Source: an uncultured bacterium
Lineage (GTDB): Bacteria > Auribacterota > Erginobacteria > Erginobacterales > Erginobacteraceae
Length of the DNA: 64,000 bases
Assembly: GCA_964587835.1 (NCBI GenBank)
Contig: CAZPMN010000003.1
Location: 76,565-140,564 of the forward strand
Reading direction: 5' to 3'
In this document: positions 21,442-36,840 of the stretch, piece by piece
Numbering within the stretch: position 1 is the stretch's first letter
How the letters are laid out: every line of letters starts with the position of its first letter
The notes under the pieces: model-generated
What the model was told of the DNA's origin: nothing
Database searches by the model: none
Seen by the model: the letters and a program-made list of their open reading frames with translations, nothing else
Made by a program: the position numbers and the translations under genes

Positions 21442-22078
21442 CCTTCTTCCGCAGCCACTCGCTCCACCGTCCTGTCCCCTCCCCCGTCCGGCAGGAGATC
21501 TCGACCACCTCCAGGTCGGGGTTGATCTCCCTCAACCCCCCGTAAAAGGAATCCCGATCGAAGTCACTGTGAGGGATGAGGTCGATCTTGTTCAGGATCA
21601 CCACCTCGGCCTCCCGGAAAAGCAAGGGATACTTGGTCGGCTTGTCATCCCCCTCGGCCACGCTCACCAGCCCGATCTTGGCCGTCTCCCCGAGATCGAA
21701 GCTGACCGGACAGACCAGGTTGCCGACGTTCTCGATGATCAGCAGATCGAGCCCGGACAGGTCGATCGCCGGCAGGGCCTCCTTGATCATCAGCGGGCTC
21801 AGATGGCACCCACGGCCGGTATTGATCTGCAGCGCCGCCAGTCCCAGGCGCCGGAGCCGGACGGTATCCTTGTCCGAGGCTAGGTCGCCCTCGATCACCC
21901 CGATCTTCAGCTCCTCGCCCAGTTCCCGGTGGGCCGCCTCGATCAGGGAAGTTTTTCCTGAACCCGGCGAGCCGATCAGGTTGAAGACGGCCACGTGGTG
22001 TTGCTGGAAAAGTTTCCGGTTCTCTCCCCCGATCCGGTCTTCTTCTTTGAGAATGTCTTCCTTGATCGCGATCTTCAT
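21419..22078 (-). CDS. hypB: hydrogenase/urease nickel-incorporation GTPase HypB
   Basis: GSPGSGKTSLI (P-loop), IENVGNLVCP (HypB-specific CP motif), NKIDL. Confidence 0.85.
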   Translation of the reverse strand: MKIAIKEDILKEEDRIGGENRKLFQQHHVAVFNLIGSPGSGKTSLIEAAHRELGEELKIGVIEGDLASDKDTVRLRRLGLAALQINTGRGCHLSPLMIKEALPAIDLSGLDLLIIENVGNLVCPVSFDLGETAKIGLVSVAEGDDKPTKYPLLFREAEVVILNKIDLIPHSDFDRDSFYGGLREINPDLEVVEISCRTGEGTGRWSEWLRKKVSSVAGR

Positions 22079-22081
22079 CTT

Positions 22082-22104
22082 AAAATTTTCCTGCAGAAAA
22101 TTTT
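22082..22104. promoter_or_regulatory. 23-bp perfect AT-rich palindrome AAAATTTTCCTGCAGAAAATTTT abutting the hypB start codon (candidate operator)
   Basis: Read directly. Stands out in a ~65% GC background. Only 3-4 nt from the hypB ATG and ~90 nt downstream of the hypA stop. Confidence 0.5.
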
Positions 22105-22149
22105 AGTATCGGGGTTTTTGTCCGCGGGCGATCAGGCTCACTTCTTCCC

Positions 22150-22185
22150 GCCCACCGCTTACCGCTCACTGCTTACCGCTTACTA
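22150..22185. repeat. heptamer array (CCGCTTA / CCGCTCA / CTGCTTA) between hypA and hypB
   Basis: cccaccgcttaccgctcactgcttaccgcttact read directly. Related to the arrays at 59326-59440. Confidence 0.55.
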
Positions 22186-22196
22186 TTCCCCATCCC

Positions 22197-22538
22197 CTAC
22201 TCCCCCTCCAGGCAATCGAGAAAGAGCTCGTCCCCGGAGAGGATCTCCAGATCGGTGGATCCGCACTCGCCGCAGGTGAAGGCCAGGTCATCCCCGGCCT
22301 TCCCCGCCCCGCAGCTCCGGCAGCGCACCGCCAGGGGGATCTCCTCGATCTTCAGCTCGGCCCCGGCGAACTCCGTCTCCCCGATCAGATGCCGGAAGGC
22401 GGTCTGGAGCGTCTCCGGAACCACCTGCCGCAGCACCCCGACCTTGACGTGAACCTCGGATATCTTGCCCAATCCCTCTCTCCGGGCCGCGGACGCCGCC
22501 AGGCGGACCAGGTTATCAGCGATCGTCCACTCGTGCAT
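22197..22538 (-). CDS. hypA: hydrogenase nickel-insertion protein HypA
   Basis: Start at MHEWTIA. C-terminal CxxC...CxxCGS zinc site (CRSCG...CGECGS). The ORF-track N-terminal extension is judged non-coding. Confidence 0.8.
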   Translation of the reverse strand: MHEWTIADNLVRLAASAARREGLGKISEVHVKVGVLRQVVPETLQTAFRHLIGETEFAGAELKIEEIPLAVRCRSCGAGKAGDDLAFTCGECGSTDLEILSGDELFLDCLEGE

Positions 22539-22605
22539 ATCTTTACACCCGTCATCTTTCCTTATTGCACAAAACCGGTATGACTTGAATTGTGCAATAA
22601 GAGAG

Positions 22606-23532
22606 TCAGGCGGGTTTGGGTTCTGGGGCAAAATCGATCTCGTAGACGTCGAGGTCGCGGGCGATCCGGGTGGCCGGGAACTCCTTCCGCGCCTCTTGCA
22701 GCATCGGTTTGATCGAGAGGTAGCGGGGACTGATGTGGACCAGGACCAGCTTTCCCACCCCAGCCCGACGGGCCAGGCCGGCCGCCTCCCGGGCGGTGGA
22801 GTGGCCCTTGAGCCCGCTCTCGGAGGCCATATCGTCGCCGAACATCCCGTCGTGGATGAGCAGGTCGGCCCCCCGGACGAACTCCTCCGCCCCGGCGAAG
22901 GGTCGGGTATCGACCATATAGACCAGCGTCCGCCCCGGACGGGGCGGGCCGAGAACCTCCTCCGGCTTCACCACCCTCCCTCCCTCCAGGGTGACCTCCT
23001 CCCCTGACTGGAGACGTTTGTAAAGCGGCCCGGCCGGGATCCCCAGCCGCTCGGCCGCCTCCAGGTCGAATCGGCCGGGCCGGGGATATTCCTTGAGCCG
23101 GTAGGCCAGGGTGAAGACCCGGTGATCGACCGGAAGGGCGTCGATCCGGTAATTGGACTCCTCGATCACCGCCCCCCCCTTGATCTCCCTCACCTCCAGC
23201 GGGTAGGCCACTCCGAACCTCAGGTACTTTCGGGAGAGGTCGACGTAGCCGCGGATCCCGGGAGGCCCGTAGATGGTCAGCGGATCGGTCCGCGAGCCCA
23301 TCGACATTGTCATCAGCAGCCCGGCCAGGCCGATCACGTGGTCGCCGTGGAGGTGGGTGACGAAGATCGCCCGGAGCCGGGCCCAGCCCAAATGGGACTT
23401 CGCCAGCTGAAGCTGGGTCCCCTCCCCGCAGTCGAAGATAAACATCTCCCCCTCCCGGAGCACCGCTGTCGCCGGGAGCATCCTCCGGGAGGTCGGGAAT
23501 GCTCCCCCCGAACCAAGCACAACCACTCTCAT
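22606..23532 (-). CDS. rnz: ribonuclease Z (tRNA 3' endonuclease, metallo-beta-lactamase fold)
   Basis: VVLGSGGAFP, THLHGDH, HIS...PRY motifs. Confidence 0.85.
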   Translation of the reverse strand: MRVVVLGSGGAFPTSRRMLPATAVLREGEMFIFDCGEGTQLQLAKSHLGWARLRAIFVTHLHGDHVIGLAGLLMTMSMGSRTDPLTIYGPPGIRGYVDLSRKYLRFGVAYPLEVREIKGGAVIEESNYRIDALPVDHRVFTLAYRLKEYPRPGRFDLEAAERLGIPAGPLYKRLQSGEEVTLEGGRVVKPEEVLGPPRPGRTLVYMVDTRPFAGAEEFVRGADLLIHDGMFGDDMASESGLKGHSTAREAAGLARRAGVGKLVLVHISPRYLSIKPMLQEARKEFPATRIARDLDVYEIDFAPEPKPA

Positions 23533-23740
23533 TATCCATACGCCCCTTGCACGCGATAGGTTGGGAAGAGAATAAGTTGAGTCTGTTTATTTCCCGATTT
23601 TTGTCAACGGAGAATTCCGAGATGAAAGGACAAAATGCCCCAACGGCCCCTGAATCCGGTCCATCCCTAAGATCCCCTTGAAAAATATAGTTGCTTTTAC
23701 CCCTATTCCCCGCTACCTTACTGACTCTTCAAAACAATCT

Positions 23741-23814
23741 GGGGGCGTAGCTCAACTGGTTAGAGTACCGGACTGTCGATCCGGGTGTTGCGGGTTCGAG
23801 TCCCGTCGTCCCCG
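23741..23814 (+). tRNA. tRNA-Asp (anticodon GTC)
   Basis: Manually folded cloverleaf: acceptor GGGGGCG/CGTCCCC, anticodon arm CCGGA-CTGTCGA-TCCGG giving GTC, T-loop GGTTCGAGTCC, discriminator G. CCA not encoded. Confidence 0.9.
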
Positions 23815-23816
23815 TG

Positions 23817-23850
23817 AAAGGCCCCGGGGGATTTTTCCCCCGGGGCCTTT
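23817..23850 (+). terminator. rho-independent terminator after tRNA-Asp
   Basis: AAAGGCCCCGGGGG-atttttc-CCCCGGGGCCTTT hairpin, with T-rich tract in the loop and flank. Confidence 0.75.
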
Positions 23851-24065
23851 CTATTGGAATCGAAGTATTCCAACACCCGCAACAAGTTGTTTCTTCCCTC
23901 TTTCGTGGTAAAGTTAATTTTCAGTCCGTTCCAATCTCCGCGGTTTCCCTTTTCCCAATCATTTCACCCTGCAGAAGGTGAAAATCTATATTCACCGGTG
24001 TCTGAATATTATTGCAAAAAGGTTATGAATATCGTAACCTTCCTGCAAATTCTATGGTGCAAGCT

Positions 24066-24719
24066 ATGCAAACATTAACCGAGAAAGTTTACCGGCTGGC
24101 TCCTCCGGGCGGAATTTTTGCTGAATCCGTGGTGCGAAATCTCTTGCCGTCGGCCTCGGATACAGCCCGGAAACAGTTCATCTACCGGGCGGTGAGCAAC
24201 GGAGAGATCCTGAGACTCAAGCCCGGACTTTACTGCCTGGCGGAAGCATATCGAAAAACCCATCCCCACCCGTTTGTTGTGGCCGGCTTGCTTCATTCTC
24301 CCTCCCACATCAGCCTGGAATCAGCGCTCTCGTATTATGGACTGATCCCGGAGGCGGTCCACGGCGTAACCAGTGTGACCGACCGCCGAGGCCGGACGTT
24401 CCGGACGCCGCTGGGAGATTTCAGTTTTACAAGAGTCCCCGCCGACGAACCCCGTGCCGGAGTCCGGCATATCAATATCGATAACCAGGGATGGATCTTC
24501 ATCGCCGGGCCGATGAGGGCTATTGCCGATTTGATCTATCTGCGAAAAGGGGTCTTCTGGAAAAAAGACGGCTTAAGATTTCTAACGGAATCCCTGCGCA
24601 TTGAAAAAGACGATCTTCATAAGATCCCGCTGGATGATTACGAAGAAGTCTTCAGCAGCCTGAGAAACAAAAGAACTAAAACATATCTCAAAGGTCTGAG
24701 ATCGGAGTTGGAGCGATGA
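24066..24719 (+). CDS. type IV toxin-antitoxin AbiEi-family antitoxin (wHTH transcriptional regulator)
   Basis: ORF 24012..24719. Probable start at MQTLTEKVYRL. 4-nt overlap (ATGA) with downstream AbiEii gene, the typical AbiE arrangement. Confidence 0.7.
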   Translation: MQTLTEKVYRLAPPGGIFAESVVRNLLPSASDTARKQFIYRAVSNGEILRLKPGLYCLAEAYRKTHPHPFVVAGLLHSPSHISLESALSYYGLIPEAVHGVTSVTDRRGRTFRTPLGDFSFTRVPADEPRAGVRHINIDNQGWIFIAGPMRAIADLIYLRKGVFWKKDGLRFLTESLRIEKDDLHKIPLDDYEEVFSSLRNKRTKTYLKGLRSELER

Positions 24720-25582
24720 TTGGAGAGATTATCAGCGAAAGAGTGCGGGATTATGCTCCAGTCGACGCCCTGGAGCAGGAGAATATTCTGGTCGAACTGC
24801 TTCAGCGCTACGTATTGGCCGCGCTTTCCCGGACCCGCTTTTTTTCCCAGGCCGGTTTTCACGGCGGGACCTGCCTTCATATCTGTTACGGGATAAGACG
24901 TTTCTCGGAAGATCTTGATTTCCTGCTGAAAGAACCCGATCCAAGTTTTGCTTGGGGGCCGTATATTGAGAAGGTTATCGCGGACAACCGGGATGAAGGG
25001 ATCCGTTTCGAACCTCAGGACAAATCGAAATCGGGAACGGCGGTGAAAAAGTATTTTTTGAAAACCGGACTCAGCGGGGAAGAGATGCGGGGATTAAAAC
25101 TTCCTTTTCCTCGCCACCCGGGCCAAAAGATCCGGATCAAGCTGGAAGCGGATGCCGATCCCCCCGGCGGGTCGGGCTTCGAGACGCGATACATCGATTT
25201 CCCAATGACGGCGGCAATCACAACTCAAACTCTTGCCTCGGGGTTCGCGACCAAATCACACGCCTTGCTTTGCCGGGAGTATGTCAAGGGTAGGGACTGG
25301 TATGACTTTCTCTGGTACGTCACGAAAAAAATTGTCCCCGATTCGGCGCTTCTCGCTAATGCCCTTAAACAGCAGGGGCCGTGGGCCGGTCAATCCATCC
25401 GGATGACCCGCGCGTGGTATCTTGAAACGATGAGGCAGAGGATCAAAGAAATCGACTGGGGCAAAGCCAGAGAGGACGTCAATCGTTTTATCCCCGCCCG
25501 GGAGCGGGAGAGCCTTAATGCGTGGGGCCCGGACTTATTCCTGCAGTCCCTCGATCGAATGGCAGAGATTATGGGGGATTAA
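24716..25582 (+). CDS. AbiEii/AbiGii-family nucleotidyltransferase toxin
   Basis: GGTCLHICYGIRRFSEDLDF (AbiEii NTase signature with the conserved RFSEDLDF block). Confidence 0.8.
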   Translation: MIGEIISERVRDYAPVDALEQENILVELLQRYVLAALSRTRFFSQAGFHGGTCLHICYGIRRFSEDLDFLLKEPDPSFAWGPYIEKVIADNRDEGIRFEPQDKSKSGTAVKKYFLKTGLSGEEMRGLKLPFPRHPGQKIRIKLEADADPPGGSGFETRYIDFPMTAAITTQTLASGFATKSHALLCREYVKGRDWYDFLWYVTKKIVPDSALLANALKQQGPWAGQSIRMTRAWYLETMRQRIKEIDWGKAREDVNRFIPARERESLNAWGPDLFLQSLDRMAEIMGD

Positions 25583-25718
25583 CGGAGCGGATCATCGTCG
25601 TCCCTTTCGTCAGCACAATCTTGTAATTTTTTGCCGCCCATCCCTTACTATCCGGAAGCAGATCTTCATAAAATTCCAGATCAACCACGCTCTGGGACAC
25701 CCGTCATCCCCGTAAATA

Positions 25719-25755
25719 AGCCGGAGGTGAATTTTACCTCCGGCCTCTTTATTTT
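25719..25755 (+). terminator. rho-independent terminator after abiEii
   Basis: GCCGGAGGT-gaatttt-ACCTCCGGC followed by ctctttatttt. Confidence 0.7.
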
Positions 25756-25856
25756 GGGGAGAGTTGTCCCGGTCACAGACCGGGATCGTCCCCGTTAGCG
25801 AAATTCGTTCGCAGCAAAAAATTGACCTGAGCGGCAGATTGGAGTATTATTTCAGT

Positions 25857-26087
25857 ATGAGCATAACAGCAGAGAAGGTCATAACAGAAGCCCTGGCCCT
25901 CTCCCCGCAGGCGCGGGCGTTCGTGGCCGAGCGCCTGATTGAAAGCCTTGACGCCGGCCCGGGAGAAGCTATTTCCCCGGCGTGGCGCGACGAACTGCGC
26001 AAGCGATGCCGGGAGATGGACGAGGGCGCGGTCGAGTTGCGCGAGGCCGCCGATGTGTTTGCTCAAGCCTATGCTGCGCTCGGATGA
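25857..26087 (+). CDS. putative addiction-module antitoxin component (TIGR02574-like)
   Basis: ORF 25764..26087. Internal Met gives MSITAEKVITEALALSPQARAFVAERLIESLD..., typical of this small helical antitoxin family. Overlaps the toxin start by 4 nt. Confidence 0.65.
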   Translation: MSITAEKVITEALALSPQARAFVAERLIESLDAGPGEAISPAWRDELRKRCREMDEGAVELREAADVFAQAYAALG

Positions 26088-26374
26088 AGCCCATCCGATT
26101 TCATCCGGACGCCGATACGGAGATGCTTGATGCCGCGGTATGGTACGAATCCCAACAACCAGCCCTCGGCAAGCGTTTCCTTGCCGCCGTCCAGGATACC
26201 CTGAATCGGATTGAGCTGAACCCCGAGCTCTACGCCCCCGTCGAGGGGGATGTCCGACGATGCCTGACCAGGACTTTTCCCTTCGGCGTTTTATTCCGGA
26301 TCAAACCAGATTTCATCGCAGTCATAGGCGTAATGCATCTGCATCGCGAGCCGGATTACTGGAAAAGTCGGTAA
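26084..26374 (+). CDS. RelE/ParE-family type II toxin
   Basis: ORF 25982..26374. Start at MKPIRFHPDADTEMLDAAVWYE. ~96 aa. ATGA overlap with the antitoxin. Confidence 0.7.
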   Translation: MKPIRFHPDADTEMLDAAVWYESQQPALGKRFLAAVQDTLNRIELNPELYAPVEGDVRRCLTRTFPFGVLFRIKPDFIAVIGVMHLHREPDYWKSR

Positions 26375-26416
26375 TTGTCGCGAAGCGGTGCCGGCTGTCG
26401 CCGCTCACCGCTGACT

Positions 26417-26632
26417 ATGATCCCACAGTATCTCCCGGTGCCCATCCCGAACCGTCCGGAACAGGGTGAGCCTATTGACGAGCCCCAGAAGAACCCGGAA
26501 CCGGCCATCGAGCTGATTCTGGAGGGGATCGCCGAACTCGGGATCTCCCCCCGCCGGAACGAGACCATCACGACCAAGCTCGAAGTCGATACCAATTTCA
26601 ACACCAGTCCACAAACGGCGCACGGATTATGA
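26417..26632 (+). CDS. small ORF (~71 aa, Pro-rich N-terminus), hypothetical; first gene of the overlapping NUDIX-PHP-kinase operon
   Basis: ORF track 26375..26632. Strong GC third-position bias. Stop overlaps the NUDIX ATG by 4 nt (ATGA), suggesting translational coupling. Confidence 0.4.
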   Translation: MIPQYLPVPIPNRPEQGEPIDEPQKNPEPAIELILEGIAELGISPRRNETITTKLEVDTNFNTSPQTAHGL

Positions 26633-27057
26633 AACGATTCAGCGGGATAATCGCCGAGGTTTACCTGGTCCCGGTCCGGGAGGGGCGCATCCTGCTCCTG
26701 CGGCGTTACCGGACCGGCTACGAAGACGGAAACTACGGCCTGGTCTCCGGGCACGTAGAGGCGGGGGAGACCTGCCGGGAAGCGATGATCCGGGAGGCGG
26801 AAGAGGAGGCGGGCCTGGAGATCCAGGCCCGGGAGCTGGAGCTGGTCCATCTTATGCACCGGCTCTCGGAGAAGAAGAGAAGGATCGCCTTCTTCTTCCG
26901 CCCCGGGGAATGGCGCAATGAACCCGAGAACCGGGAGCCGGACAAGTGCGACGATATGAGCTGGCACTCCCTCGACCGCCTCCCCTTGAACACCATCCCC
27001 TACATCAGGGAAGCCTTGCGGCAGATCGCCGGGGAAAGCCGGTACAGTGAGTTCTGA
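26629..27057 (+). CDS. NUDIX hydrolase
   Basis: Nudix box GHVEAGETCREAMIREAEEEAGL (GX5EX7REUXEEXGU). Confidence 0.8.
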   Translation: MKRFSGIIAEVYLVPVREGRILLLRRYRTGYEDGNYGLVSGHVEAGETCREAMIREAEEEAGLEIQARELELVHLMHRLSEKKRRIAFFFRPGEWRNEPENREPDKCDDMSWHSLDRLPLNTIPYIREALRQIAGESRYSEF

Positions 27058-28561
27058 GTCCAGCCCATTCGTCCACCTCCACAATCATTTCTCCGGCTCG
27101 ACCTCGGACAGCATCCTGAAACTGGACGAGGCGATCGGGGTGGCAAAAGACCGCCGACAGGTTGCCCTGGCGATCACCGACCACGGAAAATTATCCGCGA
27201 TCTGGCCGTTTTACTTCCACTGCCTCGAGCGGGGGATCACTCCCCTGCTGGGCTGCGAACTCTATTTTCTCCCGGAGTCCTCCCGGCCCTCCCCGGTCGC
27301 CCACCTGGTGGTCCTGGCCAGAGACCTGCCGGGGCTCTTCAACCTGGTCCGGCTCTCTTCCTGGAGCTGGGAGCGCAACTTCTCCCCCCCCGATTACGGA
27401 CTGGTGGACTGGAATATGCTGGAACGTTTCCGTGATGGACTGATCGTCCTCTCGGCCTGTATCAGCGGTCCGATCGGACTCGCCCTCCGGCGCCACCAGA
27501 CCGCCCGGGCACAAGAACACTTTGACCGGCTGGAGGAGATCTTCGGGGATGATTTCTACCCCGAGGTCTCCGGCCACAACCTCAAGGAGCAACCCCGACT
27601 CAACCGGTTCATCGCCGACCAGTGCCGGCGGCACCACAAGATCCCCGTGGTCACCAACGACTGCCACTATCTGGCCGCCGCGGATTGGCGCGCCCACGAC
27701 ATCTTCGTCAAGACCGCCGACAAGTATCCCTCGGACTTCGCCTATTCGGCCCGCTGCTTCTACCTGAAAGACGATCGTGAGATGGCCGGCCTGGGGTTCC
27801 CTCCCGCCTGGCTGAACAAGACCCGGGAGATAGCGGAGAAGACGACGGTTCACGTTGAACTTGACGGATACCTGAAACCCGGGTCCCCGGCCCCGGCCGA
27901 GAAGGCCGTCCGGCGCAGTCTGCCGGTAGTCCGCCCGCTTTGCCTCGGACCGGCGGCAGCGCTGCGGACCGCCGGGCGGGTCCTTAATTCGGAGAGCCGG
28001 AAACTCCATATCCTGGCCGGGCTGGCGGACGGCCGCGAGACGCTCGAAGAGTGCTCCCGAGGCAGCCGGGAATTTCGCGCCCTCATCGACACGGAACCCG
28101 AACTCTGGCGTGAAGCCCAAAAGCTGGAAGGCGTGGTGCGGGAGTTTATCCCTGATTTCCGCCGGTGGGTAGACCTGGACGCGAAGATGGCCCGTTTGAT
28201 ACCGATCCGGCTGATCAACGGCGAACCGGCCGCGGATATTGAGGAGGGGATGCTGGCGAAGCTGGGGGTTGAGGCCCGGGCCGCCGCCGCGGAGGAGGAG
28301 GCGGCCGGAGTCGATTTCACTGACGGCTACGCTTCCTGGTGGGATGACGACTACGACGATGTCATTGACAAGCTGGGCCGAATTGGTATAATTAGGCGGG
28401 ATGTGTACTTCCTTTTGGGAGACAGCTGTCTCCGCCGGGGCCGGCGGAAGCAGGCTGTCATCTTCCTGGAACTGTTTCTGCGTTCCGGGGATATATCTTT
28501 CCACCGTGGTTTCCCCCGGCTGGCCCGGGAGTACCTGGAACGCTTGCGGGATCAAGGATGA
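27047..28561 (+). CDS. stand-alone PHP-domain protein resembling the N-terminal ~330 aa of DNA polymerase III alpha (DnaE), with an unrelated ~170-aa C-terminus; no polymerase core
   Basis: FVHLHNHFSGSTSD...ALAITDHG...GCELYF, HFDRLEEIFGDDFYPEV, IPVVTNDCHYL...AHDIFV. Collinear with E. coli DnaE residues ~5-330 (compared by eye against the remembered DnaE sequence). Confidence 0.65.
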   Translation: MSSESSPFVHLHNHFSGSTSDSILKLDEAIGVAKDRRQVALAITDHGKLSAIWPFYFHCLERGITPLLGCELYFLPESSRPSPVAHLVVLARDLPGLFNLVRLSSWSWERNFSPPDYGLVDWNMLERFRDGLIVLSACISGPIGLALRRHQTARAQEHFDRLEEIFGDDFYPEVSGHNLKEQPRLNRFIADQCRRHHKIPVVTNDCHYLAAADWRAHDIFVKTADKYPSDFAYSARCFYLKDDREMAGLGFPPAWLNKTREIAEKTTVHVELDGYLKPGSPAPAEKAVRRSLPVVRPLCLGPAAALRTAGRVLNSESRKLHILAGLADGRETLEECSRGSREFRALIDTEPELWREAQKLEGVVREFIPDFRRWVDLDAKMARLIPIRLINGEPAADIEEGMLAKLGVEARAAAAEEEAAGVDFTDGYASWWDDDYDDVIDKLGRIGIIRRDVYFLLGDSCLRRGRRKQAVIFLELFLRSGDISFHRGFPRLAREYLERLRDQG

Positions 28562-29775
28562 GCGGCAAGTCTGACAGTCTGGATAGGTTGTCCCAGCGTT
28601 ACTGCCGGGAACTGCTGAAGATCAGCCTGGCGATAAACGCCGAGCTGGACCTGAAGGAACTGCTGGATATGATCGTCCACTCCGTGCGCGATCTGACCTC
28701 CTGCGACGATGCCAGCATAGTCCTCTGGTGTCCCCGCCAGGCCTGTTTCAAGATCGGGGCTTCCACCAATATCGGAGACACGGTCAGCCGGCGAGTCCGG
28801 CAATCCGGCGGGGCCAGCCGGTGGGTGGTGGATCACGGGAAACCGGTGGTCGTCAAGGACACCCGCCGGGATCCCTTCGTGGCCAACCCGATGATCCCCC
28901 AGGCGGGGATACTTTCCTACACCGGTGTCCCCATCAAGCAGGCCGACAAGGTAACGGGGGTGCTTTATGCCCTCTACCTGCGCGTTCACGCGGCCACCTC
29001 GGATGAACTGTGGGTAATGGAGCAGGCGGCAGCCAGCGCCGCCGCGGCCATCCATAACGCCAGCCTGGTCGATTCGTTGCGCAACCTGAATGCCTTCAAG
29101 AGCGCGATGACCCGGATGCTGGTCCATGACCTGCGCAATCCCCTGACCACCTTGATGGGGGGGGTGGAACTGATGCAGCTGGAACTGGAGGAGACCAGCC
29201 CGGAATTTCAAAAGTGGCTGTCGGTCATTGGGCAGCAGGCCGCCCGGATGGATGGGATGATTACCAGCATCCTCACCTACGATAAGATCAACTCCATCGA
29301 GGAGATCGAGCGCAAGCCTCTTGACCTCAACCTTCTTGTCCGCGAGGCCGCCGCCGACCTCAAGGAAGCGGCGGTGCAGAAATCCCAACGGCTGAAGCGG
29401 CAGGTATCCGCCCAGCCTCTCTGGACTTACGGCAACCGGGTGATGCTCCGCGAAGCGGTCGAAAACCTGCTGATGAACGCCATCAAGTACACTCCCGCCG
29501 GGGGAAGTATAACCGTGAGGACCCGGCGGACCGGCAAGTATTGCCTGCTGACGGTCAGCGACACGGGACCGGGGATCCATCCGAAAGACCAGAAGAAGCT
29601 ATTCCAGCCGTTTGTCCGGCTGGAACATCACAGCGGGGAAAGGGGCAGCGGTCTGGGCCTGTGCCTGGTGAAACTGATCATCGAGCGGCACGCCGGCGAG
29701 GTCGCCGTGGAGAGCACTCCCGGAGAAGGATCGACCTTCTCGATCCGCCTGCCCCTCTTCACTGAGGGAGATTGA
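28558..29775 (+). CDS. cytoplasmic GAF-domain sensor histidine kinase (GAF-HisKA-HATPase_c), no receiver partner in window
   Basis: H-box MLVHDLRNPLTTL, N-box ENLLMNAIKYT, G-boxes SDTGPGI / GSGLGL. No TM segment. Confidence 0.8.
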   Translation: MSGKSDSLDRLSQRYCRELLKISLAINAELDLKELLDMIVHSVRDLTSCDDASIVLWCPRQACFKIGASTNIGDTVSRRVRQSGGASRWVVDHGKPVVVKDTRRDPFVANPMIPQAGILSYTGVPIKQADKVTGVLYALYLRVHAATSDELWVMEQAAASAAAAIHNASLVDSLRNLNAFKSAMTRMLVHDLRNPLTTLMGGVELMQLELEETSPEFQKWLSVIGQQAARMDGMITSILTYDKINSIEEIERKPLDLNLLVREAAADLKEAAVQKSQRLKRQVSAQPLWTYGNRVMLREAVENLLMNAIKYTPAGGSITVRTRRTGKYCLLTVSDTGPGIHPKDQKKLFQPFVRLEHHSGERGSGLGLCLVKLIIERHAGEVAVESTPGEGSTFSIRLPLFTEGD

Positions 29776-29984
29776 CCGCGAGCCGCGGGGGATCAGGTGA
29801 CCCAAAGGCCTCCGCTTCCAGGACAGCCCCGCTTTTACGGCCGCTTCCGGGCAAAGTTTACCGAGGAAGCATTCTCCGCGGTCCGGCCGATAATGATCCC
29901 CAGGGTCCGTAAGGCGAAGATAATGGCCGGGTTTCGCTTCAAGGTCGGCTCCCATCTTCACGTTGGCGCTTACCGGCCGAACTC

Positions 29985-32900
29985 TTAACCGCGAGCGAGG
30001 TCGGCCAGTTCGGCATCGATCCGGACTACCCTGCCCTTTCGGATATCACGGGCGGCGCTGCCCCTGACCTCGCCGCCGGCGACGGCGACTTTCCGACCGT
30101 TGCCGTAGGTGAGCCGGTAGTTGACCACGCCTGTCCCCGACTGCCGGGAGACCGGACCCTGGCCCCCGCGGTGATAGACGACCAGGATCCGGCCGAGCAG
30201 GAGAAAGGCGAAAGAACCGGCCGGCAGCCTTAGTTTTTTCCGCCGGCCGGATCGATCCAGGTACCCGGTTTCACGCCCTGAACGGGTGAATAGCCATTCG
30301 GGAAGTGCGGGATCAAGACGGAAAGCGAGACGGGCGTCGCCTCCCAGGTAGAAGGGCCGGGGACCGGCGGTCATCAGGGTCCAGATGTGGATCATCTCCC
30401 CGGTGACCCCGCTCAGCCGGGGCTGGAGACCGCGGCCGTGCAGCGTCGGGTCCGGAAAGGCGGAGGAGACGATGAAGGAGACGTTCTCCAGGGGACTGCG
30501 GCCGTAAACCTCCGGGGAGAGGAAGGGAGGAAGCGCCGTCTTCAGGTCGGCGAAGAACTCCCGGTGGAGACCGGCGCGGAGCAGCTCGAGCAGGTACTTG
30601 AACTCCATATGGGTGTAGATCGATTCGTTCTCGATCCAGCCCGGGCCCCAGGCCTTGACCCTCCCGATCTCGAACGGCGCCTCCTCGAGGGACTCGCAGA
30701 CCTTGTACATCTTCAGCTTCCCGTCGAAGAGCCCGGAATCCCGGACCGCCCGGTAGATGGTTTCGCCTCCTTCCGGATGCACCCGGAGGTAGTGAACCGG
30801 CCCCTCGAGGAAGAGGGGGAGCGGTTCCTGACGGAAGGAGAGCGGCTCGACCAGGGGGAGTCCGTCGGGGTTGCGCAGGATTTGGCCATCGCTCCCCCGG
30901 CAGCGGCGAAAGCGGGTGACCCGGTTGACCAGGTAGGTGTAGGGAATTCCGGCCGGGTTGAAGACCCGGCGGCGATTCTCCGGACGGTAGATGAGTCGGA
31001 CCACCTTCAGCCCCGATTCGAGGAAGCAGGCCAGTTCATCCCGGGTCAGGGTCTTCTCCCCTCCCCCGATGCCATAGGCGGTGGCGGCGCGGTACTTCTC
31101 CTTCAGGGTGTTGCTCAGGTCCCAGTAGCGGCGGGGGCCGATCTTGCCGGCCCCCCGGCGGGCGGCCAGCCGGGTCAGGCTGGCGATAAAATCGGCCAGC
31201 TCGGAATAAACCCGGACCGGCCGCTCGAGGCCGGCGAGACAAGAAAGGAGGAATTCCAGGGCCCGCTCCAGCTCGAAGGTCTGGCAGAGCGAGGAGCCAT
31301 TGATCCCGGGCAATCCGTTCATCGAGTCGTTCCAGCCGGGCTTGTCGGCCTCCATCTCGATCCCGAACCCCTCCGGATCAAGGGTGGCCAAACGGTTAGC
31401 GACCAGGCAGAGCAGCTTGGTCAGGAGGCAGGTGTAGTAGACCTCCCCCCGGCCGCGCCGGGCCCGCATCCGGAGGGGGGAGCTTTCCCGGGCGGCGATC
31501 ATCGCCGATTTCTTCCCGTCGCGGACCACGGCGCCGTAGCGCCTCACACCCTCGTCGGTGAGAACGTACTTCTCCGAGCGGGGCACGACCAGGTCGGGGT
31601 TGTCGTAAAAATAATACCGCCGGTTCCCCACCAGCAGCTCCTCGGCCCGATCGGGGAAGACGGAAAGGAAGGCGTCAAGGAGGTCAAGGTTGTAGAGCCA
31701 GTGGTCGACCCAGTAGCCTTCGTGGACCCCGGCGGAGTCCTCCTCGACGCAGAAGCCGAGCAGCTTGTTCAGCAGCCGGCCGGGGTTATTCGACCCCCGG
31801 ATTTTCAGTTTTTCGGCCGCCATCGCGAACTCTCCCGGAGAGAAGGAGCCGGCGAGCAGCTCGCCCAGCCGGCGGGATTTCTCCTTCCCGGCGATAGTTT
31901 TCAGCCAGCGGCGGCAGCCCGCCCGGTTCTCGACCCGATAAACGACCTGGTTGACCTCCAGGGGGTTGTAACCGTCGGTCTGGATCAGGTTGAGGAAGAG
32001 CCGGATGTTCTCGTCCTCGGTCTCGGGGAAGAACCTCACGTCGCAGCGCCGGTTCTGGTTGACGGAGCGGTAGTGCCCGGTCCCCTGGGAGTAGTAGGTG
32101 GGGTCGAGGACGAAAAAATGGTAATCGCGCTCCAGGTCGCCGTTCTGGCGGGAGTAGAGGTAGAAGGCCGATTTCCCCTCGGCGGCGTTAAAGACGGTCG
32201 GCATCCCTCCCCGGATCACGTTGTCGAGAAAGGTCTGCCGGCAGTAGTTATCGAAGTCGGGCTCGCCGGAGGCGGTGAAGCACAGATCCTCGATCCCCCG
32301 GACCAACTCCGCGTTCTCCTTGCGCTTGGCGGCCAGGTAGCGGGGACCGAGACGCCGGATCAACCCCGGTATCTCTTCCTCGTCTTCCTGGCCGATCACG
32401 GAGTAAATCCGGAAGGTCTCTCCCGGTTTAAGGCGGAACGGCGCGGCAGCGAAGGCGCAGGGCGTTTTGTTCTGCCGGGCCTGGCTCTGCTGGAATACCT
32501 CGCCCGGGGCTAGCCGGGCCAGGCGCCAGGGCTGGTCGTAGATCTCGCTGTCGGCGAAGATTACCGCCGGATCGACGATGTAGGAGGTCCGGCGGGGGTC
32601 GGGCCGGTCGGAGGCAAAGGCGGCGTAGAAGTTGCCCCGGCGGATTTGCTCGATTTGCTCTACGTCGGCCGGGCTCTGCTTGAGCCGGAAGAGCGGCACC
32701 CCAAAGCAATCGAAGACCCCGATCATCCCCTCGATATGGCGGGCGGTGGTCTTAAGGATCTCCAGGTCGCAGCCGAAGGGAAGGATCCGGGCCGCCCCGT
32801 CGACCACCTCTCCCTCCAGGGTCCGCTGGGAGATATTGCGCAGGGAGAGGACCCGGACCAGGGCGGGAAAGCTCTCCCCGGGTAGGGTGTAGTAATCCAC

Positions 32901-33275
32901 CCCGGTCACCAGTCCCCTCCGGGGAGAGGACTCGCCCAGGGTCAGTTCGGCCGGGGACACCGTCAGAATCTGCCTGATCCCCCGCTCCCGGCTCTTCCGG
33001 AAAGGCTCGTATATTCGGCCCTTCCCGATCCGGATAAAGGTCCGGAACCCCTGATGACCCACCACCTGGAGGGCCCGGTTGAAGGAGAGGAATTCCAGGA
33101 TCTGGTTGTCCTTGTCCCCCACCCCCGCCGAGCAAAGGCACTGACCCCGGCTGACGTAGTAAGCCCAGAGGGGGATGCCGGTCTCCCCGGCGATCCCGGG
33201 GAGAAAGTTGGAAAAGGAAGGCTGCCAGTTGTAATCTTCGACGAGAAACAAACCTTCCGGGGTGGTCTGGTACAT
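29985..33275 (-). CDS. large (1096 aa) conserved hypothetical protein, possibly a six-hairpin (alpha/alpha)6 glycoside hydrolase/phosphorylase-like enzyme
   Basis: Uninterrupted ORF. Start chosen at MYQTTPEGLF, 7 nt after GGAGG. Blocks such as KPGWNDSMNGLPG and GYWVDHWLYNLDLL are reminiscent of GH15/65/94-type barrels, but assignment is tentative. Confidence 0.55.
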   Translation of the reverse strand: MYQTTPEGLFLVEDYNWQPSFSNFLPGIAGETGIPLWAYYVSRGQCLCSAGVGDKDNQILEFLSFNRALQVVGHQGFRTFIRIGKGRIYEPFRKSRERGIRQILTVSPAELTLGESSPRRGLVTGVDYYTLPGESFPALVRVLSLRNISQRTLEGEVVDGAARILPFGCDLEILKTTARHIEGMIGVFDCFGVPLFRLKQSPADVEQIEQIRRGNFYAAFASDRPDPRRTSYIVDPAVIFADSEIYDQPWRLARLAPGEVFQQSQARQNKTPCAFAAAPFRLKPGETFRIYSVIGQEDEEEIPGLIRRLGPRYLAAKRKENAELVRGIEDLCFTASGEPDFDNYCRQTFLDNVIRGGMPTVFNAAEGKSAFYLYSRQNGDLERDYHFFVLDPTYYSQGTGHYRSVNQNRRCDVRFFPETEDENIRLFLNLIQTDGYNPLEVNQVVYRVENRAGCRRWLKTIAGKEKSRRLGELLAGSFSPGEFAMAAEKLKIRGSNNPGRLLNKLLGFCVEEDSAGVHEGYWVDHWLYNLDLLDAFLSVFPDRAEELLVGNRRYYFYDNPDLVVPRSEKYVLTDEGVRRYGAVVRDGKKSAMIAARESSPLRMRARRGRGEVYYTCLLTKLLCLVANRLATLDPEGFGIEMEADKPGWNDSMNGLPGINGSSLCQTFELERALEFLLSCLAGLERPVRVYSELADFIASLTRLAARRGAGKIGPRRYWDLSNTLKEKYRAATAYGIGGGEKTLTRDELACFLESGLKVVRLIYRPENRRRVFNPAGIPYTYLVNRVTRFRRCRGSDGQILRNPDGLPLVEPLSFRQEPLPLFLEGPVHYLRVHPEGGETIYRAVRDSGLFDGKLKMYKVCESLEEAPFEIGRVKAWGPGWIENESIYTHMEFKYLLELLRAGLHREFFADLKTALPPFLSPEVYGRSPLENVSFIVSSAFPDPTLHGRGLQPRLSGVTGEMIHIWTLMTAGPRPFYLGGDARLAFRLDPALPEWLFTRSGRETGYLDRSGRRKKLRLPAGSFAFLLLGRILVVYHRGGQGPVSRQSGTGVVNYRLTYGNGRKVAVAGGEVRGSAARDIRKGRVVRIDAELADLARG

Positions 33276-33437
33276 CAGAGGACCTCCGTGAGCTCGATTT
33301 CCGGGAAGTTCCACCATAACAGCGCCGGACCCGGCCGGTCAAGGACAAGGACCGGCCGGGCCCGGGCAAACTTTATCTTGCCTCCCGAACCGGGCCGGAT
33401 TATCTTTTTCCGGAGCCAACCTCGCCCCGGAGACAGG

Positions 33438-35081
33438 ATGAAGATCGCCCTCGGACAGCTCAACCCCACGGTGGGGGATATCGCGGGAAACCTGGAGAAG
33501 CTGGAGAAGGTCCTGGCCAGGCTGGAAACCGGCGTCGAGCTGGCCGTCTTCCCGGAACTCTTCCTGACCGGTTACCCCCCCCGGGACCTGCTGGAGAAGG
33601 CCTGGTTCAACCGGCGGGTAGCCGAAGCCGTCGACCGGGTGGGCGAACTCTCCCGACGCCACCCCGGAACCGGGATTCTTCTCGGCGCCCCCCTCCCCTC
33701 CGGCCGGAAGATTGGCAAGGGTCTGCACAACTCCGCCCTCCTCTTCTGGCGGGGCGAGATCGTCCACCGGCAGGCCAAGACGCTCCTGCCCAGTTACGAC
33801 GTCTTTGACGAGACCCGCTACTTCGACCCCGCCGGCGACCAGATCCCGGCCGATTTCCGGGGGGAGAAGCTCGGGATCTCGATCTGCGAGGACGCCTGGA
33901 ACGACCCCGAGTTCTGGCCCCGACAGTACTATCGGGACAATCCCCTCCGGATCCTGGCGGATAAAGGATCAACCATCCTGATCAACATCGCCGCCTCCCC
34001 TTTCGCCGCCGGCAAGGATCGGTTGCGGTTCGACCTCCTGCGCGGCCAGGCCGACCGCTTCCGGCTTCCCCTGCTTTATGTCAACCAGGTCGGGGGAAAC
34101 GACGAACTGATCTTTGACGGGGGGAGTTTCCTCCTCGACCGGAAAGGTCGCCCGACGGCGGTGTTACAATATTTCCAGGAGGAGGTCCGGGTGGTCGATA
34201 CGGGGGCGGACGGGCAACCGGGACTCTTCGCCCCCCGGGAGAAGATCGAGACCATCCGCCGGGCCCTGGTTCTGGGGATTGCGGACTACGGCCGAAAATG
34301 CGGCTTCCCCTCGGCCCTGGTCGGCCTCTCCGGAGGGATCGACTCCGCGGTCACCGCCGCCCTGGCGGTCGAGGCCCTGGGTCGGGAAAACGTAACCGGG
34401 GTGACGATGCCCTCCCCCTTCACCGCCCAGAGATCAATCGACCTGGCTCGGGAACTGGCCGACAACCTGGGGATCGCCCTCCACAACATCCCGATCACCT
34501 CCATCTATGAAAGCTACCTGGCGGCCCTGGGGGAGGTCCTGCCCCGAGAAGAACAAGCGGCCGATCTGGCCCGGGAGAACATCCAGGCCCGGATCCGGGG
34601 CAACATCCTGATGACCTTCTCCAACCGCTACGGCTCCCTGGTCCTCTCCACCGGGAACAAGAGCGAGATGGCCACCGGCTACTGCACCCTCTACGGGGAT
34701 ATGTCGGGGGGGCTGGCCGTCCTCTCCGACCTCCCCAAGACCGGGGTTTACGAACTGGCCGAATTGATCAACCGGAAGCGGGAGATCATCCCCGCCGAGA
34801 CCATCTCCCGACCCCCCTCGGCGGAACTCAAGCCCGGCCAGACCGACCAGGACACCCTCCCCCCCTACCCCGTCCTCGACCGAATCCTGGCCTATTACAT
34901 CGAGGACAACCTCTCCGGGGAGGATATCATCGCCCGGGGGCTGGATCCGGCGGCGGTGGACTGGACGATTAAGGCGGTCAACCACAACGAATACAAGCGG
35001 CGGCAGGCCCCGCCCGGTTTGAAGTTGACCACCAAGGCCTTCGGCAGCGGGCGGCGGATGCCGATCTGCGCCCGGTACTGA
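33438..35081 (+). CDS. nadE: glutamine-dependent NAD+ synthetase (nitrilase domain + NAD synthase domain)
   Basis: MKIALGQLNPTVGD...VFPELFLTGYPP (CN-hydrolase). LSGGIDSAV (PP-loop SGGxDS) in the C-terminal domain. The ORF-track N-terminal extension is discarded. Confidence 0.9.
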   Translation: MKIALGQLNPTVGDIAGNLEKLEKVLARLETGVELAVFPELFLTGYPPRDLLEKAWFNRRVAEAVDRVGELSRRHPGTGILLGAPLPSGRKIGKGLHNSALLFWRGEIVHRQAKTLLPSYDVFDETRYFDPAGDQIPADFRGEKLGISICEDAWNDPEFWPRQYYRDNPLRILADKGSTILINIAASPFAAGKDRLRFDLLRGQADRFRLPLLYVNQVGGNDELIFDGGSFLLDRKGRPTAVLQYFQEEVRVVDTGADGQPGLFAPREKIETIRRALVLGIADYGRKCGFPSALVGLSGGIDSAVTAALAVEALGRENVTGVTMPSPFTAQRSIDLARELADNLGIALHNIPITSIYESYLAALGEVLPREEQAADLARENIQARIRGNILMTFSNRYGSLVLSTGNKSEMATGYCTLYGDMSGGLAVLSDLPKTGVYELAELINRKREIIPAETISRPPSAELKPGQTDQDTLPPYPVLDRILAYYIEDNLSGEDIIARGLDPAAVDWTIKAVNHNEYKRRQAPPGLKLTTKAFGSGRRMPICARY

Positions 35082-35149: not shown

Positions 35150-35647
35150 TCAGGGCAATTCGACGATATTGCTCAGCACTACCGGATCGGCGTAGGGGTT
35201 GTCGGAGGCTTCCACCAGGTAGAGGGTCCAGCCGGAGGGAACGGCCAGAGAGAGGGTGAATTCCCCGGTCTGGGCGCTGAAAAGCCCCAAGTTGTTCTGA
35301 TCGACCAGGATCCGGTTGTCGGTGGTCAGCCGGGTATGGACGGCGATCCGAACGTCCCCCCGGTAGGGTTGGAGCAGGCGGTAGGAGAAGGAGAGGTTAT
35401 CCGGCTTCTCACCGCTGACGGCGATCAGATAAACGTCTCCCCCCTCCGGCTGAAAATCCAATTCCGGCAGGACCGAATTCCAGAAGCAGCTTACCGTCTG
35501 GCCGGATGCCGGAGACTCCGGCACCGCCGCGGGGGTCGAGACGGGGGACAGGGCTGGCGGCGGGGAGACCACCTCTCCGACCGCCGGAAGACCCGGAAGC
35601 AACAAAAGCAGCAGAGCCAATCGCCACGTCGTTTTCAGCATATCCAT
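35150..35647 (-). CDS. secreted hypothetical protein
   Basis: Signal peptide LALLLLLLPGLPAVG. No known motifs. Confidence 0.45.
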   Translation of the reverse strand: MDMLKTTWRLALLLLLLPGLPAVGEVVSPPPALSPVSTPAAVPESPASGQTVSCFWNSVLPELDFQPEGGDVYLIAVSGEKPDNLSFSYRLLQPYRGDVRIAVHTRLTTDNRILVDQNNLGLFSAQTGEFTLSLAVPSGWTLYLVEASDNPYADPVVLSNIVELP

Positions 35648-35671
35648 ATCCTTCCCGCCCCCGGTGAATTC

Positions 35672-36658: not shown

Positions 36659-36660
36659 AC

Positions 36661-36840
36661 CACTAATTACACTAATTAACTTGCATTATCCCCCCACCTC
36701 GCCCCCTTTGAAGTCCACTAATTACACGAATTATCACTAATTTTATTTAGAATCCCCCACCTCACCCCCTTTCAGTCCACAGATTACACTGATTACTCAG
36801 ATCAGTTCCCCCTGCCCACTGCCTACTCCCCACTGCCCAA
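36661..36840. repeat. repeat-rich intergenic region between gmd and rmd. ~40-bp direct repeat x2 (ATCCCCCACCTCGCCCCCTTTGAAGTCCACTAATTACAC), plus CACTAATTACAC and CACTGCC sub-repeats.
   Basis: Read directly at 36688-36727 and 36747-36785. Confidence 0.7.

Follow-up and report, generated by a model that had tools for sequence, protein, structure and literature searches.

The locus examined here raises the question of what a Nudix hydrolase, a phosphoesterase of the PHP type and a sensor histidine kinase are doing in one operon, and whether they form a conflict system, as a preliminary description of this DNA had supposed. The operon lies on the forward strand of a 64-kb stretch of bacterial DNA (the window, meaning the whole stretch analysed), with the following features.

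26417–26632, + strand: small ORF, 71 aa from ATG (85 aa from the TTG at 26375), a doubtful gene outside the conserved module.
26629–27057, + strand: Nudix hydrolase of 142 aa (PF00293), of the small 'housecleaning' type resembling MutT/NUDT1/NUDX1.
26749–26817, + strand: Nudix box, read from the translation as G41-x5-E47-x7-R55-E56-A-E-E59-E60-A-G62-L63.
27047–28561, + strand, GTG start: 'mini-DnaE', a DnaE1-derived protein of 504 aa in which the PHP site is intact, the polymerase centre is lost and a TPR tail is present.
27068–27901, + strand: PHP domain of mini-DnaE, aa ~8–285 (PF02811, phmmer and ligand columns in the alignment).
27914–28276, + strand: DnaE palm/thumb remnant, aa ~290–410, from which the PDxDxD-bearing segment is deleted.
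28289–28558, + strand: C-terminal helical tail, aa ~415–504, with two TPR-like repeats.
28365–28392, + strand: perfect sigma-70 consensus, TTGACA-16 nt-(TG)TATAAT, in the 3' end of mini-DnaE, a candidate internal promoter.
28558–29775, + strand: cytoplasmic orphan histidine kinase of 405 aa, with GAF (aa 30–166), HisKA (181–246, with H190) and HATPase_c (293–400) domains, all above the Pfam cut-off.

Reading of the ORFs and Pfam/NCBIfam searches bore out the coordinates and domain calls of the preliminary description, as well as the overlaps of 4, 11 and 4 nt between successive ORFs, and none of the four predicted proteins has a transmembrane-like segment. The proposed 'four-gene operon', however, held for the Nudix, PHP and kinase genes only. 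The small ORF, which runs 4 nt into the Nudix gene, has a coding-like GC content by codon position (0.61/0.42/0.74, including GC3), but no homologue upstream of the Nudix gene in the related loci L001, L007, L019 and L020; it had no match in Pfam, NCBIfam or PADLOC and no obvious Shine-Dalgarno sequence, and its region gave no Rfam or RNA-structure signal. As judged by these sequence comparisons, the conserved block is one of three genes, not four.

The Nudix–PHP–kinase order recurs in L001, L019 and L020 with different flanks, the PHP–kinase pair recurs in L014, and a Nudix–remnant–kinase arrangement is found in L007–L010. The test that the preliminary description had set itself, co-conservation across genomes, is thus passed by the three genes, flanks notwithstanding, whereas the neighbouring orphan enzyme (1110 aa; 1096 aa in that description) is not co-conserved with them. 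Linkage to mini-DnaE and the kinase is limited to the orthologue group of the window Nudix protein (at least 73% identity; 74–84% for the orthologues in L001 and L007). The partner genes were absent at 26 distant Nudix homologues (27 loci, L021–L047, one being too short to judge) and also beside a kinase orthologue at 56% identity. As the block is known from closely related lineages only, shared ancestry accounts for part of this linkage. Since the GC content of the operon equals that of the window (0.626 versus 0.625) and NadE and RNase Z–HypAB flank the block in both the window and L007, a core-chromosome synteny, the operon is best explained as native and vertically inherited in a narrow lineage of uncultured bacteria.

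The most unusual gene product is the PHP protein. The preliminary description held that a stand-alone PHP domain is otherwise seen only fused to a polymerase, which is too broad, as RNase AM, YcdX, HisK and CpsB are among the structural matches; the unusual feature here is a DnaE-derived PHP domain without a polymerase. The protein matched PF02811 (8e-31) and, over positions 4–291, DnaE models, and its PHP domain matched those of the Taq, Mtb and E. coli DnaE proteins (phmmer, E 4e-29), so that it carries a DnaE-type N-terminal PHP domain. A histidinol-phosphatase-type housekeeping identity was rejected on the same profile and structural matches. All nine metal ligands (H12, H14, D21, H46, E71, H86, C138, D205 and H207) are present. 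An 'active' PHP domain has been defined by the nine-residue motif HHDHEH[C/H]DH (PMC12926913); in our alignment this motif occurs in the window protein and in its relatives P0002, P0160–64 and P0003–5, the nine ligands being invariant even in family members just 31–37% identical to the window protein. The DnaE-like fold continues past the PHP domain, with about 150 aa of palm/thumb retained in the structural matches. The PDxDxD motif is missing from the window protein and from every family member, whereas aligned fragments of genuine DnaE carry it; the alignment shows gaps at palm-1, and PF07733 was not detected.

Compared with DnaE1 (Pol III alpha; T. aquaticus 2HPI, M. tuberculosis DnaE1 5LEW), which has ~1150 aa and works in the replisome, mini-DnaE has 504 aa and a Nudix–histidine kinase operon for context. 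It lacks PDxDxD, the fingers, the clamp-binding motif, the OB fold and the tau-binding C-terminal domain, and has gained a tail of helix-turn-helix repeat pairs with TPR geometry. It is not a full-length DnaE (172 bits against PRK05673, cut-off 1002) and aligned over 403–418 residues to the compared DnaE chains of 919–1149 residues; its structure was predicted, with high confidence, as a compact fold. Having lost the catalytic segment of the palm along with the fingers and the clamp-binding and OB parts, mini-DnaE is, on sequence grounds, a DnaE1 paralogue shrunk to a predicted PHP enzyme and unable to polymerise. Stand-alone PHP enzymes (RNase AM/YciV/TrpH, Cv1693, YcdX, HisK, CpsB/YwqE) are far more distant from it than DnaE and have neither the palm/thumb remnant nor the TPR tail, and homology gives no ground for assigning it the substrates that they use (RNA 5' ends, pAp, histidinol-P, phospho-Tyr). 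In DnaE1-type polymerases the PHP domain acts as a 3'-5' exonuclease.

An exhaustive profile search returned about seven 50%-identity clusters of the mini-DnaE family among 1.84 billion representatives, and a search of 185,579 species genomes with two peptide patterns found none. In P0159 and P0160 the module is fused to two class III cyclase domains (Guanylate_cyc), an AAA_16 STAND domain and TPRs, so that the Guanylate_cyc, AAA_16 and TPR arrays of class III cyclase–STAND–TPR regulators also occur joined to distant mini-DnaE relatives. P0161 lies next to a PAS-HisKA-HATPase-REC hybrid kinase, whose stop codon it overlaps, and the extensions of P0162/P0163 resemble STAS and PilZ, a likeness that rests on a pLDDT-57 model and has no Pfam match there. 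The wiring runs to histidine kinases, class III cyclase–STAND proteins and STAS/PilZ-like modules. A sister family (P0003–5) keeps a whole but dead palm, so that the sequences form a reduction series from dead palm through deleted palm (the window) to an 88-aa remnant (L007).

Such stepwise reduction, together with the extreme rarity of the family, is what might be expected if mini-DnaE were an evolutionary relic, a decaying and functionless dnaE paralogue linked to its neighbours by recent common descent alone. In L007–L010 an in-frame loss has indeed left just 88 aa of the PHP protein (residues 1–61 joined to 474–504) with Nudix and kinase intact, from which it follows that the PHP enzyme is dispensable there and that the three proteins need not share a pathway. 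Elsewhere, however, the orthologous ORFs are intact (502–504 codons) at 60–61% identity, identity is 50% over the 233 C-terminal residues available from L014, the metal ligands stay invariant down to about 31% identity, and a compact fold is predicted with very high confidence. Moreover, the PHP gene is under purifying selection comparable to that of its neighbours and no more relaxed (dN/dS 0.29 versus 0.32 and 0.38), and that a conserved TPR tail and new fusions have been gained speaks for a function. We therefore give the relic hypothesis very little credence. The caveat in the preliminary description that the PHP protein might be a lineage-specific dnaE fragment was half right: the protein is a lineage-restricted DnaE derivative, but it is conserved, its PHP site is intact and it has been inherited together with its neighbours.

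Mini-DnaE apparently represents a rare, undescribed family repeatedly tied to signalling proteins. Because of this repeated wiring to signal-transduction modules, the combination of PHP domain, dead-palm remnant and TPR tail suggests a fragment of a replicative polymerase exapted as a regulated phosphoesterase. We propose more tentatively that the family might be an unrecognised class of signalling enzyme, an exapted fragment serving as a regulated phosphodiesterase of a nucleotide or oligonucleotide messenger or as a regulated nuclease effector, and that it might share one nucleotide-signal circuit with the GAF kinase and the Nudix protein. C-family polymerases are usually regarded as replication or translesion enzymes, and one DnaE survey excluded fragments without an intact polymerase site while another dropped strongly diverged or truncated sequences before phylogenetics. 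In the conserved lineage described here, DnaE has been cut to a PHP nuclease/phosphoesterase plus an interaction tail, beside or fused to signal-transduction proteins. There is a precedent in the X family, where noncanonical PolX and PolX-like proteins have lost synthesis and kept the PHP exonuclease (PMC9226535; PMC12926913), the noncanonical Deinococcus PolXs having been shown to be efficient 3'-5' exonucleases. Noncanonical PolX and the actinobacterial 'PolX-like' proteins carry deletions or substitutions in palm and fingers with PHP conserved, the same evolutionary logic as in mini-DnaE. If mini-DnaE is active, the PolX principle of an accessory nuclease outliving its polymerase would extend to the C family, and a small, defined and well-modelled protein would be available for studying a lone DnaE-type PHP domain. 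Its present importance is moderate, the family being very rare and its function inferred.

The Nudix protein scored well above the PF00293 cut-off (3.4e-18; 66 bits against 21) and combines a Nudix fold with a perfect box (GX5EX7REUXEEXGU at G41–L63), the motif-defining residues of which are invariant across a three-lineage alignment, with three intervening positions varying. Its nearest solved structures are NUDX1, NUDT15, MTH1 and MutT-family proteins, and with MutT, NUDT1 (MTH1), NUDX1 and NUDT15 it shares a ~140-aa single domain with the canonical box. Unlike these types, it fell below every NCBIfam equivalog cut-off, including those for MutT (NF008044, 40.4 versus 148 bits; TIGR00586, 36.9 versus 97.9).

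These relatives bring up DNA repair and nucleotide sanitation, in which the Nudix enzyme would clear oxidised or non-canonical (d)NTPs like MutT/MTH1 and mini-DnaE would trim damaged or mismatched DNA 3' ends in trans. Mini-DnaE would then be the C-family counterpart of noncanonical PolX, and the kinase a mere neighbour or a stress sensor. Besides the Nudix relatives, the proposal has in its favour a PHP site with the motif that marks proofreading DnaE1, the retention of palm/thumb parts, which in DnaE contact primer–template DNA, the sister family with its whole but dead palm, and the PolX precedent. Yet an adjacent repair gene was absent at every locus examined, the clamp-binding and OB regions are lost, and the family is found fused to or beside kinases, cyclase–STAND proteins and STAS/PilZ-like domains rather than repair proteins; the Nudix score, 40 against 148 bits, is also far under the MutT equivalog cut-off. 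A role in repair is possible but, on this balance, rather unlikely.

The kinase has the phospho-acceptor histidine of HisKA and the N, G1, F and G2 boxes of HATPase_c. H190 (H box), N303/N307 (N box), D335-G337-G339 (DxGxG) and G363-G365-L366-G367-L368 (GxGLGL) are invariant in 10 orthologues. Orthologues of the kinase range from 39 to 74% identity. That no response regulator lies near the kinase, as previously noted, was confirmed by tblastn for the window and every lineage examined: four receiver queries found no receiver domain in the 64 kb or in the regions flanking L001, L007, L014, L019 and L020, and the same queries recovered the receiver of locus L015 as a positive control. In its GAF-HisKA-HATPase layout with intact catalytic boxes the protein is like orphan cytoplasmic GAF kinases of the DosT/DevS type, from which it differs in the weak similarity of its GAF domain to solved GAFs (best E 4e-4) and in that its vicinity lacks a receiver, Hpt or regulator in every lineage. 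The earlier designation of this domain as nucleotide-sensing found no support, the nearest solved relatives (Nlh1, the best at 4e-4, DosT/DevS and PtsP) all being weak and a cGMP phosphodiesterase GAF reaching only E 0.31.

For the block as a whole, the best explanation, which we hold with moderate confidence, is a mini-DnaE phosphoesterase acting in a signalling operon. Mini-DnaE would be a metal-dependent phosphodiesterase or 3'-5' exonuclease acting on nucleic-acid or oligonucleotide/nucleotide 3' ends, and would be tethered through its TPR tail to a signalling partner, in this operon probably the kinase. Within the same pathway the Nudix enzyme would hydrolyse nucleoside di-/triphosphate-type substrates, and the conserved GAF pocket of the kinase would sense an intracellular ligand, with the signal passing to an unlinked regulator. 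By analogy, the PHP trinuclear metal centre might instead dephosphorylate a protein (the phosphorylated kinase, receiver or STAS domain), again with the TPR tail for docking, a role that we consider improbable. PHP-family tyrosine phosphatases (CpsB/YwqE) and PP2C–STAS partner switching offer parallels for such a protein phosphatase.

The preliminary description had favoured a nucleotide-signal or NAD/ADP-ribose conflict (anti-phage) system, in which a sensor kinase and two nucleotide-cleaving effectors would form part of a defence island. Pfam and PADLOC bore out the AbiEi/AbiEii and antitoxin/ParE pairs that lie directly upstream of the operon in the window, and in L020 a DUF433/truncated DUF5615 pair lies upstream. 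Moreover, distant relatives bear the PHP module N-terminal to a STAND NTPase–TPR region, as is typical of effector–STAND proteins, and in PADLOC-DB 2.0 the Nudix protein gave a weak, generic match to the candidate PDC-S07. In the same database, however, the PHP protein had no match and the kinase only a weak generic HATPase one, strong matches being limited to the neighbouring AbiEi/AbiEii. The AbiE pair is a low-GC insertion (0.53) beside an operon of average GC content, neither neighbouring toxin–antitoxin pair is conserved in relatives, and L007, with the same core-chromosome neighbourhood, has no such genes; their types vary by lineage, and the PHP 'effector' is deleted in one lineage. Nor does the block look like a mobile or phage-borne element: no relative was found on IMG/VR viral contigs, there was no tRNA-derived direct repeat (att), and its distribution within the clade looks vertical, not patchy. 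The operon is not a recognisable defence system, and we judge the conflict interpretation, which these data leave unsupported, to be distinctly unlikely.

Of the overlaps from which co-transcription and translational coupling had been read, the 11-nt one of Nudix and PHP genes, with the GTG start, is kept across all lineages examined, whereas the ATGA overlap of PHP and kinase genes is replaced by a gap of 2 nt in L020 and L014 and shrinks to 1 nt in L007, and the kinase has a candidate promoter of its own. Because the perfect sigma-70 consensus lies 166 nt before the start codon of the kinase gene, this gene need not be co-transcribed with the others, and the element may drive the kinase independently. 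This 12/12 match is the sole perfect one in the 64 kb (0 in 100 shuffles); its −35 element is conserved in L020 and L014, with a weaker −10 in both.

Reading of the window sequence recovered the four open reading frames that the preliminary description had joined into one operon, with successive overlaps of 4, 11 and 4 nt.

Genes of the operon region (window coordinates, strand, identity)
26417–26632, +, small ORF with an ATG start (the frame opens at TTG 26375)
26629–27057, +, Nudix gene (PF00293, 3e-18)
27047–28561, +, gene of the PHP protein, with a GTG start (PF02811, 8e-31)
28558–29775, +, kinase gene (GAF, HisKA and HATPase_c all above cut-off)

Profile searches bore out the domain calls (Nudix, PHP and GAF-HisKA-HATPase_c), and no membrane-spanning stretch was found in any of the operon proteins. 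Likewise, no receiver domain was detected in the 64-kb window by tblastn with four receiver-domain queries, as had been claimed; as a positive control, the same four queries detected the receiver in L015, the locus of a more distant relative. The small ORF has a coding-like GC3 profile and no family match, and none of the related loci showed a homologue of it 5' of the Nudix gene. Its region gave no Rfam match and no RNA structure above that of shuffled sequences (z 0.34); a riboswitch or leader role was considered and dropped. In our reading it lies outside the module, as an ORF that is not conserved and occupies the ParE-to-operon spacer; what we retain from the proposed four-gene operon is the conserved block of Nudix, PHP and kinase genes.

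A word-indexed search returned a sole full-length close homologue of the PHP protein (P0002, 61% identity), whose 2.2-kb contig encodes Nudix, PHP and the N-terminal part of the kinase, the Nudix and PHP genes again overlapping by 11 nt. A word-indexed search with a nine-sequence C-terminal alignment recovered no cluster at all, the query's own included. Among 29 loci that a metagenome scan retrieved with the Nudix protein as anchor, PHP and kinase genes lie beside the Nudix gene only in L019 and L020 (on 40- and 90-kb contigs; 73–74% identity for Nudix, 60–61% for PHP and 65–66% for the kinase). Neither gene adjoins any of 26 more distant Nudix homologues (41–55% identity), a set that comprises the 27 loci L021–L047 with the exception of L047, which ends after 99 nt. 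At L014, a kinase with 70% identity is directly preceded by a PHP C-terminus (50% identity), and in L011–13 the kinase (56% identity) occurs without a PHP or Nudix partner. In L007–L010, the closest relative, represented by an NCBI MAG and three independent assemblies, the gene order is Nudix, PHP remnant and kinase (74% identity for the kinase).

7735–8001 of L007–L010, +, in-frame PHP remnant of 88 aa, joining residues 1–61 to residues 474–504 of the window protein

This remnant keeps the 11-nt overlap with the Nudix gene and overlaps the kinase start by 1 nt; the last TPR helix persists in its product. Since the deletion is seen in at least four independent assemblies, it is real rather than an assembly artefact, and the PHP enzyme is thus dispensable in at least one lineage. 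Flanking genes in L020 are FG-GAP/CotH giants and DUF6790, and L014 has an ECF sigma factor there; the window and L007 share RNase Z-HypAB and NadE as flanks, and comparison of window 21419–35081 with L007 revealed an inverted tRNA-Asp-to-kinase segment, located in both between RNase Z-HypA-HypB and NadE. Because the flanks differ between lineages, the Nudix–PHP–kinase block has been held together through rearrangements, and its recurrence in gene neighbourhoods, on which the idea of a functional unit turned, is real within one narrow clade only.

In alignment with DnaE fragments, the PHP protein has an intact PHP domain, followed by a gap at the palm segment that bears PDxDxD in real DnaE; the alignment then resumes over the thumb and second palm blocks and is succeeded by a unique tail of ~90 aa. 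PDxDxD is absent from every family member and present in the genuine DnaE sequences of the same alignment. All nine PHP metal ligands are present (H12, H14, D21, H46, E71, H86, C138, D205 and H207) and make up the HHDHEH[C/H]DH motif by which PHP domains are called active (PMC12926913), so that by this criterion the domain of the window protein counts as active. Matches to DnaE models are confined to positions 4–291 and reach 172 bits, where the equivalog cut-off is 1002, and descent from a DnaE1-type polymerase follows from the 172 bits obtained with PRK05673 versus 32 bits with the DnaE2 model. The AlphaFold model was very confident (pLDDT 93, pTM 0.92), and Foldseek gave a TMq of 0.67–0.72 to DnaE chains, compared to 0.49 for a PHP-only construct. 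Judged from its sequence and predicted fold, the PHP protein is a polymerase-dead “mini-DnaE”, consisting of a PHP domain, a palm/thumb remnant and TPR. That it is a functionless relic appears highly improbable: between L019 and L020 the PHP gene had a dN/dS of 0.29, next to 0.32 (Nudix) and 0.38 (kinase), the estimate being restricted to this close pair on account of synonymous-site saturation in the window–L020 comparison (61% protein identity).

The PHP domain of polymerase-dead PolX hydrolyses phosphoesters at 3' ends (PMC9226535), and mini-DnaE may be regarded as its C-family analogue, residing in an unnamed operon. As the PHP domain has this activity in DnaE1-type polymerases as well as in polymerase-dead PolX, mini-DnaE would hydrolyse phosphoesters at the 3' ends of nucleic acids or (oligo)nucleotides. 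It would be docked through its TPR tail, probably to the kinase as partner; the Nudix protein would act on a related nucleotide substrate and the kinase would signal to an unlinked regulator. The Nudix protein, the best conserved of the three (74–84% identity), contains a perfect Nudix box; among solved structures it is nearest to NUDX1, NUDT15, MTH1 and MutT-family enzymes, and its scores stay below every NCBIfam equivalog cut-off. A module for repair or sanitation is an alternative that we consider unlikely, though deserving of some weight. In the kinase, the H, N, G1 and G2 boxes are invariant and the GAF core is strongly conserved. The GAF domain had been described as nucleotide-sensing, a reading we do not uphold, given its weak resemblance to solved GAF domains (Nlh1 at 4e-4, then DosT/DevS and PtsP) and an E of 0.31 for the cGMP-PDE GAF. 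We see little prospect that mini-DnaE, encoded beside this kinase, is instead a protein phosphatase.

A perfect TTGACA-N16-TATAAT sequence with an extended −10 TG lies at 28365–28392 (+), within the 3'-terminal part of the mini-DnaE coding sequence and 166 nt upstream of the kinase start. This sigma-70 consensus is the sole perfect match in the 64-kb window and was encountered in 0 of 100 shuffles; its −35 element is kept in L020 and L014, where it also codes for conserved residues and is followed by a weaker −10. From its sequence, the site is a candidate internal promoter that may uncouple the kinase from Nudix and PHP. Co-transcription of all three genes is plausible and, because of this site, not obligatory. 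No promoter-like site was found in the gap between ParE and the Nudix gene; the antitoxin gene is preceded by a 10/12 site, and a terminator-like hairpin lies 3' of AbiEii.

An exhaustive profile search with the post-PHP region against 1.84 billion representatives identified about seven clusters of the mini-DnaE family. In P0159 and P0160, from AT-rich organisms, PHP, remnant and TPR are fused to two class III cyclase domains and an AAA_16 STAND NTPase, the full-length member of the pair having an additional long TPR array. At L015 1972–7514, the gene of the distant relative P0161, truncated where its contig stops, begins a single base within the stop codon of a hybrid kinase gene (1332 aa, PAS-HisKA-HATPase-REC). 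P0162 and P0163, from GC-rich organisms, carry C-terminal extensions of 250–330 aa, in which Pfam gave no useful match; in a modest model (pLDDT 57), a STAS-like domain (E 3e-4, TMt 0.7) is followed by PilZ-like barrels (MrkH, YcgR, PA4608; E 2e-3 to 2e-2), and we tentatively describe the extensions as STAS/PilZ-like. P0164 is stand-alone. The TPR-tailed family is thereby tied to signal-transduction proteins in two clades and, tentatively, a third. A sister group, P0003–P0005 (530–550 aa), shares 34–37% identity with the window protein when the full alignment is counted and 38–42% in best local alignments. In its members the PHP site is intact and the palm is complete but catalytically degenerate, with SCPN/SCPH/SCPD at the position of PDxDxD; their genes stand alone, without Nudix or kinase, between ExbB-ExbD-TonB and a flavodoxin-like (Flavodoxin_2) gene. 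They have the appearance of an intermediate stage in the reduction of DnaE. The DnaE surveys consulted either left out fragments lacking an intact polymerase site or described PolX-like truncations alone, and we found nothing relevant in the literature on PHP combined with Nudix, kinase or cyclase. The mini-DnaE family, rare, narrowly distributed and of putative function, comes as a genuine surprise in the evolution of polymerases and lends itself easily to testing.

A scan of genome contigs with two C-terminal peptide patterns gave a WWDDDYD match in L006 alone (8001–8108), within a 680-aa secreted protein ('NTWWDDDYDHTTQKIGALGC') of an Elusimicrobia MAG, which we judged to be chance or convergent and not a relative.

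The toxin–antitoxin pairs reported upstream of the operon proved genuine, and a second, unrelated module occupies the same position in L020 as ParE does in the window.

Toxin–antitoxin features upstream of the block
23740–26374 of the window, tRNA-Asp, then AbiEi/AbiEii (GC 0.53), then Unstab_antitox/ParE
5520–5960 of L020, directly upstream of the Nudix gene, DUF433 antitoxin-like gene and 47-aa truncated DUF5615/PIN-like gene

Such modules directly upstream in two lineages, together with the STAND fusion of the distant relatives, the only feature recalling conflict systems, speak for the defence or conflict system initially proposed. Against it, the two modules belong to unrelated types (ParE in the window, DUF433/truncated DUF5615 in L020), PADLOC had no model for the PHP protein and generic weak matches for Nudix and kinase, and a scan of viral contigs with alignment A2 returned no relative. 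Moreover, the GC content of the operon (0.626) is that of the window (mean 0.625), which is core chromosome (LigA, SurE, polyprenyl synthase, HypAB, RNase Z, NadE) and syntenic with L007, a locus devoid of TA genes, where the AbiEi/AbiEii and Unstab_antitox/ParE pairs are absent and FG-GAP and methyltransferase genes occupy the tRNA-Asp-to-Nudix space. No att-like repeat of the tRNA-Asp 3' end was found. We therefore set aside the conflict-system reading as improbable.

Neither the convergent 1110-aa ORF next to the kinase gene (29985–33317, −) nor RNase Z or NadE was accepted as a module member, none being co-conserved with the operon in L019 and L020. The 1110-aa ORF has no Pfam match and a partial, weak NCBIfam match to GH149 beta-1,3-glucan phosphorylase (residues 524–717, E 2e-14). 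Two further window ORFs, at 35336–36679 (+, 447 aa) and 12424–13455 (−, 343 aa), have no Pfam family at E ≤ 1e-5, and a 1583-aa protein at 5515–10266 (−) consists nearly entirely of HEAT/PBS-lyase-type repeats, with 23 HEAT_2 stretches.
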